From IMG/VR virus record IMGVR_UViG_3300029085_000025: a stretch of DNA of 5,721 nt, one strand, 5' to 3'. This stretch comes from a virus. Its lineage: Duplodnaviria; Heunggongvirae; Uroviricota; Caudoviricetes. Shown here in pieces: positions 1 to 3,000 of this stretch (its first letter is position 1; every line of letters starts with the position of its first letter). A program made the position numbers.

Positions 1-3000
1 GGCTGTTGTGGTGGGGTTGTCACTCAGGCGTATGGTCAACCTGACAATCCGGTGTCCTCAACGGGGAAAGAGTAACCCCGCCATACTTACCGCCGCGCCA
101 TTTCGCGGATTACCACAACGCTGAGAGCACTTAGCCAGTTACAACACCACACTTTGTCGCGGCTCCATAAATGCCCTCATCGTTGCACCCTGGTCTCTTC
201 CCAGGCGTCAAACCGAATCGCCACGCTGGTTAGGCGTCTTATCAGCATCCTCATTGACTTGCACATTCCGGCTATCTGGTTTGTTTGCCCGAGCAAGGAG
301 TGGATTGTCCCCTTTAACGTCCCCAGACCGCTAACGACGCATGTGCCATACGCCGTGTTACAACCAAATTTTGTTAGTACCTTGTTTGTAGGTCTGGAGA
401 GAAAGATAAAATGAAGTTGCGCATTATGCAAGTGTTTTATTGCGAGATAAGCAATTTGGTGGGTGATGAAAAGCCACCTTCTGGTGGCTAATTGATGTTG
501 AGGTAGGGGGTTAATTGTGTCGCTTAAGGGTCTGTGACTGACTGATTAAGACCTTTCCAAAGACCATAAACCGGTGTTCGTTTTCGCTGGTAATTCCCCA
601 TTCGCGGTAAATCTGATTATCAGAAATTACCAGCAGTTTATCAGGTATCATTTGCAGTCGTTTGACGTAAATTTTATCATCAAAACCAAATACATATATA
701 CCATCCCCATCAAACTGATTGATACTGATATCAACGAAGATGAGATCTCCTGGCTCAATGGTTGGACACATACTGTCCCCACGAACGTTGATAACTTTAA
801 TGTGATTTGCTGGTCGTCCACCAAACATCGATACAGCATTATCAGTTCTGTATTCAATGGCATGAATCACATCAATGACATCACCGCCCTGGATAAGGCC
901 ATTTCCCGCACTGGCACTGACATCCAGCATTTCAATACGGAATACATCCTTCACCTGCGTAACATCCTCACTAATACTGTTTTTACATACAGTATTACTT
1001 TTGAGGTCTGAGGTAAAGAGATCAGCAATATCAACACCTAAGCTCCTGGCAATATTACTCAGGGCTTGTTCAGTGAATTGTTTCTGCTTACCTGTTTCGA
1101 GGCGCGAGATATTCGCCGCATCCACTCCTATTGCTTCAGCGAGATCGGCGATTTTCATGTTCTTCGCCTGGCGAAGTTGTCTGACTCGATTTCCTATGTT
1201 CATGCGTTTATTACATTTCTTTATTGCGCGTTAAGCAAATCAACTTGCGCAAAATATTTGCGTGAAATAATATGCTCATCACGCAATATGTGGAGGTTAT
1301 ATGCAATCACCATTACGGAATGTGCGTAAGGCGCACGGATTTACTTTGCAGCATGTTGCTGCGGGCGTTCAGGTCAATCCAGCGACGCTGAGTCGTATTG
1401 AAAGACTGGAACAAATTCCATCTATCGATCTTGCAGAACGTCTGGCCAATTTTTTTAAGGGTGAAATCAGCGAAATGCAGATTCTTTATCCGGCACGTTT
1501 TCAATCTAGCCAAAACCAGAATGGGTTTAAACCACAGGAACAGGAGGTAAGCCGTGGGTAAGCATCATTGGAAAGTGGAAAAACAACCTGAGTGGTACGT
1601 GAAAGCTGTCAGAAAAACTATCGCGGCATTGCCTGGGGGTTACGCTGAAGCTGCTGACTGGCTGGATGTAACAGAGAACGCTTTATTCAACCGCCTTCGT
1701 GCAGATGGCGATCAGATTTTCCCGCTGGGATGGGCAATGGTTTTACAGCGCGCGGCTGGCACTCACTACATTGCGGATGCTGTCGCACAATCTGCTGGTG
1801 GGGTGTTCGTATCGCTTCCTGAAATTGAGGAAGTAGAGAACGCCGATATAAACCAGCGCCTGCTGGAAGTCATCGAACAGATCGGGAATTACTCAAGGCA
1901 GATTCGTTCGGCAATCGAAGATGGGGTCGTGGAGCCACACGAGCAGACAGCAATTAATGATGAGTTGTATCTGTCAATTTCGAAGCTCCAGGAGCATGCA
2001 GCACTGGTCTACAAAATCTTTTGCGCTCCAGAAAAGAGTGACGCCCGCGAGTGTGCAGCTCCGGGCGTCGTGGCGTCGATTGCTTCTGGTTGTGGAGAAA
2101 CTAACGCATGAACAGTTTAACGGCAAATAACCGTTTGTCGCAACAGCTGGTGGTCAGCGTCGCTGAACACCTGTTGTTACGGCATGAATGCAGATTACCA
2201 AATCACCTGGCTGTAAGTAACCACAGAGAACTTTACCTGACTGTGGGGGGCGAGTTGTGCAGGAACTTAACCGCTGGTTTCGTGACGGAAGAGGACTTTA
2301 TGTTCATGTTATTCGTTGGGAGCCAGAAACACAGCGCGTTATCTATCTTCGCAAAGACTACCAGCATGAGTGCTTTAGTCCTTTGTGGAAATTCAGGCGT
2401 GATTTTGTTGAGTGTGAAGGACCACCAGCACATTGATTCTGCCATTCCGGGACGTTACACTGTTCAGGCACCTTATAAAGCGGGTGTCGGGATTGGCGTC
2501 CTGGAATTGCATACGGCGACAATTGGCGCGTTAGCGTCTTTTTTGTTGCTACAACTCAGCTATACCCAAATTATGGTGGGCTGGGTGGGGGCACCGAAAG
2601 GTGCGCCGGTTTCCGTATGCGCCGGTTACGCCAACCCTGCTCAGTTCACCACCAGCGAAATTGGCGTTTCCGGTGGTGGAAGTTATCCATTGCATACGGA
2701 GGCTGCCATCATGGCTACGATCCCAACCCTCACTCAACCTGAAATTGCCATCGTTGATGGTCAGGCTGTTACTTCATCCCTGGCTGTTGCCAACTTCTTC
2801 TCCAAACGTCATGACGATGTACTGAAAAAGATCCGCACGCTTGAATGTTCCGCATCATTCACTGCCCGCAATTTTTCGGTGAGTGATTACACCGATTGCA
2901 CAGGCCGCAAACTACCTTGCTATCAAATAACCCGCGACGGCTTTGCGTTTCTTGCTATGGGTTTCACGGGTAAACGTGCTGCCCAGTTCAAAGAGGCATA

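Follow-up and report, generated by a model that had tools for sequence, protein, structure and literature searches.

In the second immunity region (immI) of phage P22, a small antisense RNA, sar, controls translation of the antirepressor gene ant. In the immI (c4-icd-ant) region of P1 and P7, the C4 RNA and its target reportedly arise from the same transcript; as Citron & Schuster are said to have described in 1990, the a' and b' boxes of C4 are complementary to the boxes a1 and b1 upstream and to a2 and b2 downstream, which span the ribosome site of the leading gene in the antirepressor operon, and the box sequences reportedly determine heteroimmunity. In this kind of system, RNase P is reported to release C4 from a precursor, and C4 to repress translation and bring about termination by Rho. 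According to the literature, P1 ant is fully repressed only when the C4 antisense RNA is present (PMC8198154). The CI RNA of P4 pairs with the flanking elements seqA and seqC (PMC4825925). In the isrK-orf45(STnc1160)-anrP locus of Gifsy-1, the activity of the isrK promoter and its start site are known from experiment, a stable processed RNA, STnc1160, is found downstream of IsrK, and a pairing called helix b-I has been proven by the compensatory mutants G28A/C162U and G31A/C159U; the authors also noted the likeness to P4 seqA/CI/seqC (Hershko-Shalev et al. 2016, PMC4825925). Here, we describe a locus of a lambdoid prophage that very probably belongs with the last three of these systems. The window, a 5,721-nucleotide stretch of the Caudoviricetes record IMGVR_UViG_3300029085_000025, holds directly in front of a Rha-family gene an interval, 2433-2710, that is best explained as an RNA-based secondary-immunity cassette of the P1/P7 immI (c4), P4 seqA-CI-seqC and Gifsy-1 isrK kind.

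A permissive Rfam search of the window found matches to two RNA families in this interval, both present as well in 8/8 comparator loci. The isrK model (RF01394) is matched over positions 1-77 of 77 with 58.9 bits (gathering score 50) and ends in a hairpin followed by six T residues (hairpin-T6), and the C4 model (RF01695) is matched over positions 1-87 of 87 with 80.7 bits (gathering score 45). Matches to miRNA families from the same search lay far below their thresholds and were disregarded. The minimum-energy fold of the C4 segment is a long closing stem around two hairpins (-45 kcal/mol, z = -3.9); the loop of its hairpin 2 carries, besides b', a conserved UUUCC, which is an anti-Shine-Dalgarno sequence, and its 3' tail is CCA-like. 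The two boxes of C4 are complementary to a pair of boxes on either side, namely a1 and b1 in the IsrK-like RNA and a2 and b2 in front of the Rha gene (Table 1).

Position 1 of the isrK model is preceded, at a distance of 7 nt, by the putative sigma-70 promoter TTGATT-17-TACACT. A scan of the interval for sigma-70 promoters at a cut-off of 9/12 reported none, because this site matches 8/12 consensus positions. Among relatives whose DNA further upstream is unrelated, the arrangement TTGnnn-17-TAyAnT recurs at a constant distance from IsrK hairpin 1, and the site of the window is homologous to the active Gifsy-1 isrK promoter. Its spacer contains a partly conserved CCATTCC motif, and the stop codon of the preceding DUF4222 gene (2434-2436) lies within its -35 hexamer. 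Given this promoter, transcription would be expected to start at about 2468.

The three b boxes change together. A scan of viral contigs with GCCGGTTTCC-N7-CCGGTT yielded at least 120 loci, which, together with three annotated regions and the window, gave at least 83 unique cassettes. Among the matches listed, the seven variable bases of the b' loop occur in many variants (GTATGCG in the window, TTGATCA in SfV, and GATAACG, AATGTTG, AATAAGG, TTGAAGG and TTGATCG elsewhere). In the same set, the reverse complement of a cassette's own b' 9-mer (at least 8/9 bases) was found upstream in 76% of the unique cassettes and, at a fixed distance, downstream in 82%; with foreign loops, the same test gave 1.5% and 1.8%, respectively. 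Pairs were then counted, for a specified structure, in an alignment of 42 sequences (A1). Compensatory changes occur in 6/10 pairs of b':b2 (14-22 sequences each, 93.8% of cells paired) and in 6/8 pairs of b':b1 (99.1% of cells paired); b', b1 and b2 co-vary across 42 related cassettes in at least seven common specificity types. The a':a2 pairing is kept in 97.2% of cells with a nearly invariant box, and a':a1 is invariant. Over all helices, 93.9% of cells pair, a share that drops to 35-48% if one partner is shifted against the other by 1-3 columns. A small hairpin around a2 was weak, with 74% of cells paired, and was not retained.

Table 1. Features of the cassette and of its neighbours in the window; compensatory changes and paired cells refer to the 42-sequence alignment A1, and extra alleles are given for frame-2 codon positions 1/2/3.
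Feature	Position	Strand	Basis and remarks
cI-like repressor gene	511-1203	minus	
cro-like gene	1301-1561		
YmfL/CII-like gene	1554-2111		NF041471, E = 2.5e-50
DUF4222 gene, 59 amino acids, frame 1	2257-2436	+	Pfam PF13973, E = 1.1e-13; phrog_1343, full-length match; extra alleles 9/22/7 (2257-2433)
Putative sigma-70 promoter	2433-2461	+	-35 TTGATT 2433-2438, 17-nt spacer, -10 TACACT 2456-2461
Cassette, stretch used for allele counts	2437-2710		Extra alleles 35/32/33
IsrK-like small RNA, a1/b1 (P4 seqA-like) element	2468-2544	+	Rfam RF01394
IsrK hairpin 1	2468-2487	+	6/6 pairs with compensatory changes; 99.2% of cells paired
IsrK hairpin 2	2488-2503	+	a1 in loop; 3/5 pairs with compensatory changes
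a1 UUGGCG	2493-2498	+	Loop of IsrK hairpin 2; complementary to a'
b1 GCAUACGG	2509-2516	+	Complementary to b'
IsrK terminator	2525-2538 (hairpin), 2539-2544 (U6)	+	2/5 pairs with compensatory changes; 91.0% of cells paired
Variable spacer, IsrK terminator to C4	2545-2568	+	Alignments; about 37-43 extra bases in some relatives
C4-type antisense RNA	2569-2656	+	Rfam RF01695; homologous to P4 CI and Gifsy-1 STnc1160
Conserved AUG, 5' arm of C4 outer stem	2573-2575	+	Homologue of first start codon of Gifsy-1 orf45
C4 outer stem	2574-2590 with 2635-2651	+	8/17 pairs with compensatory changes; 96.4% of cells paired
C4 hairpin 1	2591-2604	+	5/5 pairs with compensatory changes; 100% of cells paired
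C4 hairpin 2	2605-2610 with 2621-2626	+	Stem invariant in alignment
b' UCCGUAUGC	2612-2620	+	Loop of C4 hairpin 2; complementary to b1 and b2
a' CGCCAA	2629-2634	+	Single-stranded, adjoining hairpin 2; complementary to a1 and a2
a2 UUGGCG	2661-2666	+	Complementary to a'; loop of possible hairpin 2652-2660 with 2668-2676
b2 GCAUACGGA	2692-2700 (element 2692-2704)	+	Complementary to b'; runs into Shine-Dalgarno sequence
Rha-family gene, proposed regulated target	2711-3256	+	Pfam PF09669, E = 1.7e-30; TIGR02681; extra alleles 69/55/156

These pairings account for the cluster of DNA repeats from which the original prediction had started. The words it listed with coordinates all lie where it had placed them (ATTGCATACGG at 2506 and 2689; TGCGCCGGTT at 2602 and 2618, in different reading frames; ATTGGCG at 2492, 2522 and 2660), as does the hairpin GGCGCGTTAGCGTC followed by TTTTTT at 2525-2544, which was also picked up by a terminator scan; GTTTCCG, listed as occurring twice, lies at 2609 and 2666. 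The density of repeats in 2440-2710 is well above chance when judged by dinucleotide shuffles: 9 repeated 8-mers were counted against 0.69 expected, a number reached in 1/2000 shuffles, and 3 repeated 10-mers against 0.048 expected, reached in 3/2000. What had been overlooked is a single inverted copy of GCATACGG, namely CCGTATGC at 2613, which is the b' loop. The repeats of 2440-2710 are RNA-RNA pairing sites, and the doubling of TGCGCCGGTT arises incidentally from the CCGG stem of C4 hairpin 2, which is palindromic, and the loop sequence of the window's type. The expectation that the repeats would be conserved in related prophages holds for the boxes, the b boxes co-varying and the a boxes being near-invariant, and fails for the ATTGGCG at 2522, which is not conserved in relatives of other types and was dropped as an extra a box. 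An imperfect inverted repeat proposed between 2442-2452 and 2499-2509 was likewise discarded: it is 9/11 complementary, a few such repeats are expected by chance per 270 bp on a rough estimate, its covariation score is 0.048 as against 0.049 in shuffles, and its first arm lies inside the promoter spacer, upstream of the expected transcript start. In its broader proposal, that a regulatory module with an internal promoter and a terminator-like element separates cro/cII(YmfL)/DUF4222 from the Rha and replication genes, the original prediction is supported; the full-length isrK match ends in the hairpin-T6, and the putative promoter keeps its position in relatives.

The target side of the cassette bears directly on the start of the Rha gene, which had been placed at ATG 2711. 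The Shine-Dalgarno (SD) sequence GGAGG (2698-2702) stands 8 nt before this ATG and is overlapped by b2, and the predicted duplex between C4 and its target (2608-2620 with 2692-2704) covers the entire SD. In duplex predictions, C4 reaches -39.6 kcal/mol with its own a2b2 and -37.6 kcal/mol with its own IsrK, compared with -22.7 to -32.0 kcal/mol for non-cognate targets; the window's own targets are its most favourable predicted partners, and the cognate combination is best for most other types too. The SD and the ATGGCUAC motif are conserved before at least four different downstream genes, and the Gifsy-1 cassette stands before a fifth. Moreover, relatives with insertions or deletions (indels) in the SD-ATG stretch keep the downstream gene in the SD-ATG frame with a MAT... 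start, and the position of ATG 2711 is homologous to that of the Gifsy-1 anrP start. From these comparisons of sequence, we conclude that ATG 2711 should be taken as the real, regulated start of Rha, in agreement with the earlier assignment. In addition, a2 and the adjoining UUUCC (2667-2671) can form a cis helix with the SD region that is mostly conserved and paired in 91.8% of cells; this helix could keep the SD out of reach for as long as neither a ribosome nor C4 opens it.

Homology among the relatives starts at the -35 hexamer and ends a few codons past the ATG, in ATGGCUAC, and the flanking DNA and genes differ. The downstream gene encodes Rha, a short Rha, an SfV-orf37-type protein or an Icd-like protein (NF033153, E = 3e-22), and in Gifsy-1 an ORF6N protein.

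The original prediction had allowed that the repeats might lie within a real coding region, and the available annotation takes this view. RefSeq lists no RNA gene here, and its PGAP coding sequence (CDS) for 'Rha' begins at 2306, inside DUF4222 in another frame, so that the interval would encode the N-terminal 'Ash' domain of a longer Rha and the repeats would be incidental or protein-level. Frame 2 is indeed open over 382 codons (2108-3256), a stretch that takes in the YmfM-like start, DUF4222 (which uses the other frame), the cassette and the Rha gene. The open reading frame (ORF) from 2108 matches Pfam PF10554 (Phage_ASH) at residues 117-212 (= 2456-2743) with 63.5 bits against a threshold of 26 (E = 2.9e-17), PHROG matches (821/995/3960) reach E = 1e-186, and both ATTGCATACGG copies lie in the same frame and encode LHT. 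However, when extra alleles per codon position were counted among sequences at least 80% identical to the window, Rha showed its excess at third positions and DUF4222 at frame-2 position 2 (the third codon position in the frame of DUF4222), whereas the cassette was flat (Table 1); thus, no protein-level constraint is visible there in any frame. For Gifsy-1 orf45, the authors likewise report no protein-level constraint (PMC4825925). The PGAP CDS, moreover, overlaps DUF4222, whose coding signal is in another frame; the Ash profile begins at the promoter and reaches the fourth codon past the ATG, exactly the extent of the RNA cassette; and the variable 'residues' coincide exactly with b1, b' and b2 and vary in the manner of complementary nucleotides. 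The Gifsy-1 frame closes two codons before orf45, which has only 45 amino acids, and stops or frame changes also occur in distant relatives and in three enteric lineages. In P4, the match to the Ash model (L124 8330-8521) is to the obsolete 'cI gene product (AA 1-137)' ORF over the CI RNA, and the true P4 derepression protein epsilon belongs to PF25738, not to Ash. Ordinary coding is, in our judgement, very improbable. We conclude that a conserved RNA overlain by an open frame has given rise, as artefacts, to the 'Ash domain' and the N-terminal extension by PGAP; the IsrK/C4/a2b2 cassette, conceptually translated, is matched by PHROGs 821/995/3960/6928, and the Phage_ASH family and several PHROG families appear to be the translated cassette. 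Hardly any weight can be given to the suggestion that the repeats are protein-binding DNA sites, that is, operators or iterons for a CII-like protein, Cro, Rha or a replication initiator. Dense repeats do adjoin regulatory and replication genes here, and the CCATTCC of the promoter spacer is partly conserved; however, the boxes form two direct copies and one inverted copy, the latter in the loop of a conserved RNA hairpin, they co-vary as Watson-Crick and G-U partners (tolerance of G-U being a property of RNA), their spacing agrees with the Rfam RNA models, and it has been shown by experiment that the homologues act as RNAs (PMC4825925, PMC8198154).

A reading that would combine RNA and protein is possible, though on balance doubtful. 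According to it, the cassette RNA is also translated, from AUG 2573 or from upstream, in frame through C4 and a2/b2; the outcome would be either an N-terminally extended Rha (at least 227 amino acids) or the unfolding of the structure that hides the SD, which would amount to translational coupling without a stop codon. The open frame 2, the in-frame AUG 2573 and the conserved cis helix able to hide the SD leave room for such translation. Gifsy-1 orf45 is translated and needed for anrP translation (PMC4825925). AUG 2573 is conserved, as AUGG, in the Rfam consensus and the relatives; no stop separates it from Rha, and in most enteric relatives the ORF that it opens is in frame with four different downstream genes. 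In addition, none of the seven enteric types has a stop in frame 2 within the cassette, even where the spacing is longer by 39 or 45 nt, whereas 1-3 stops interrupt each of the other two frames in the IsrK-spacer stretch. The absence of third-position bias, on the other hand, indicates that the peptide sequence is not under selection. Indels in three independent lineages (L014/L025/L104, L006/L024 and L090) put the ORF out of frame with the downstream gene, stop codons close it after 42-70 codons in distant relatives, no SD precedes 2573, and the statistics of the open frame are weak (p = 0.01-0.05 on a rough estimate, with lineages that are not independent).

Several points also weigh against an explanation by a pure RNA cassette. 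Such a model does not predict that frame 2 should be kept open in all enteric types. The terminator hairpin is weak, having 5 bp including a G-U pair, and being invariant, the a boxes carry no covariation information. The Rfam model RF03163 (c4-a1b1) is matched below threshold, at 2455-2507 with 20.4 bits against a gathering score of 46.7; the isrK model covers the same element and passes its threshold. The published models differ, in that C4 is the repressor in P1 and the a1/b1 RNA an activator in Gifsy-1, where repression by the C4 homologue was not demonstrated. Finally, we infer the transcript ends, the processing of the RNAs (C4 in particular), the direction and outcome of regulation and any involvement of Rho from the described relatives.

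With this said, the RNA cassette would work as follows. The promoter would fire near the end of DUF4222, and most transcripts would end at the hairpin-U6, giving a 77-nt IsrK-like RNA that exposes a1 and b1. Transcripts that read through, or that come from pR upstream, would carry C4, which may be processed as in P1 and P4. The a' and b' boxes of C4 would pair with a2 and b2; since b2 overlaps the SD of Rha, C4 bound there would block ribosome entry, and by analogy with P1 and P4 the untranslated mRNA would be terminated before the downstream early and replication genes. As IsrK carries the same boxes, it would compete for C4, in cis or in trans, relieve the block and, as Gifsy-1 suggests, turn Rha on. 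By homology, C4 probably masks the ribosome site of Rha, with IsrK as a decoy or an activator, and the variable b boxes would set the specificity while the a boxes stay constant.

The window represents the immunity and early-right part of a lambdoid prophage and shows 100% identity to the chromosomes of E. coli MS7163 and S88; positions 2100-2800 are matched in 1504/5426 complete E. coli genomes (approx. 28%). The Rha gene, which is followed by replication-type genes, scores above both curated cut-offs (PF09669, 105.9 bits vs 29.9; TIGR02681, 102.4 vs 45.95). The DUF4222 gene is the left border of the cassette and lies outside the switch proper. RefSeq/PGAP labels it a truncated pseudogene, and its 59-amino-acid ORF is intact with third-position bias (2257-2436; L001 3158-4157). 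In the e14 element of E. coli K-12, ymfL and DUF4222 are present and the cassette is absent, having been lost at the oweE junction. The e14 gene ymfM ('cell division inhibitor YmfM') overlaps the DUF4222 ORF in another frame (L126 4823-5161 = window 2108-2446); a comparison of e14 with the window shows good conservation of the DUF4222 frame, in which VIRWEPETQRVIYLR is identical despite synonymous differences, and not of the YmfM frame. The ymfM phenotype might belong to the DUF4222 product. At the other side of the region, a GC-rich hairpin, AGCCACCTTCTGGTGGCT, is found at 472-489, just outside the cI-like gene on its 3' side; TTTTCATC comes after it on the minus strand, as expected of a terminator of the repressor gene, which it probably is, and its position agrees with the annotation of SfV and Ayreon.

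Two further observations concern the spread of the cassette. Across loci L002-L123, at least 13 b' loop sequences occur with an invariant a' CGCCAA; the first gene behind the cassette is one of at least five unrelated ones, the junction always lying a few codons past ATGGCUAC. At L014, where the cassette precedes an Icd-like gene, an int-alpA RNA (RF02996, 47.6 bits) is found at 7978-8039, which suggests that this locus is a P4-like satellite; the cassette hence appears to be shared between lambdoid prophages and satellites.

The cassette is an uncharacterised member of an already known type of system, so that its intrinsic novelty is low, and its value for annotation is clear. It explains the repeat cluster as an RNA switch that would guard an antirepressor-like Rha gene and probably the replication genes behind it. 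It also corrects the annotation, in which RefSeq lacks the RNA gene and extends the Rha CDS to 2306, over the cassette into DUF4222. This matters beyond the window: 'Rha/Ash domain proteins' of Stx phages have been discussed without a known function (PMC8951638), and PF10554 has been used as a marker for P4 epsilon (PMC8628076). The co-varying b boxes offer a ready way to predict the mutual immunity of prophages and satellites. Two more speculative ideas, which taken jointly we consider rather unlikely, are that the element has a dual function with a selected open frame and, separately, that interchangeable b boxes form a heteroimmunity code. In the E. coli/Shigella lineage, an orf45-type leader may have lost its stop codon, selection keeping the frame open. 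If this were true, ribosomes would cross C4 into Rha, Icd-like or other genes, with two protein isoforms as the outcome and with the folding and processing of C4 coupled to translation. A b-box code, with at least 13 variants and a constant a box, would be common to lambdoid prophages, P4-like satellites and Gifsy-type phages and would allow cross-talk between co-resident elements.

Of the described systems, P22 offers an analogy only: its sar lies on the opposite strand across the ant ribosome site, has no Rfam match in the window and is not homologous. With P1/P7 the window shares the geometry of the boxes, a' and b' being complementary to boxes both upstream and downstream on the same strand and the downstream boxes overlapping the site where ribosomes would bind for the first regulated gene; some relatives of the cassette are also followed by an Icd-like gene, as in P1. 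In contrast to P1/P7, the target in the window is Rha itself, without icd, the prophage is lambdoid and not a plasmid, and the a1/b1 element has its own terminator, hence is also a separate small RNA. P4 has the same pair of Rfam families in the same order (isrK/c4-a1b1 at 8615-8705, C4 at 8420-8507) and the same 'Ash' pseudo-protein match over the RNA; it differs in its longer seqA-CI spacer, in a' (UCUCAC vs CGCCAA) and in the outcome described for it, which is premature transcription termination of the replication operon. In Gifsy-1, the layout is identical: promoter (putative in the window), 77-nt IsrK, U-tract terminator, C4-type RNA, a2 and b2 (PMC4825925). There (L125), isrK lies at 34316-34240 and C4 at 34214-34131, followed by a2, b2 AUCACCGGAGG, 8 nt and the anrP ATG. 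A107 (the orf45 AUG) corresponds to L125 34210, so that the published numbering fits a transcript start at position 1 of the isrK model, and helix b-I is exactly the a1:a' pairing. Gifsy-1 and the window differ in b specificity (loop CGGUGAU in Gifsy-1), in the downstream gene (an ORF6N protein vs Rha), in genomic position (after Q in Gifsy-1, in the early-right operon after cro/ymfL in the window) and in the end of the leader, as the orf45 UGA overlaps the anrP AUG (AUGA), whereas the ORF of the window runs in frame into Rha without a stop. In both, a1 stands in the loop of hairpin 2, the AUG in the 5' stem of C4 is conserved, and b2 abuts GGAGG, followed by 8 nt and the ATG.

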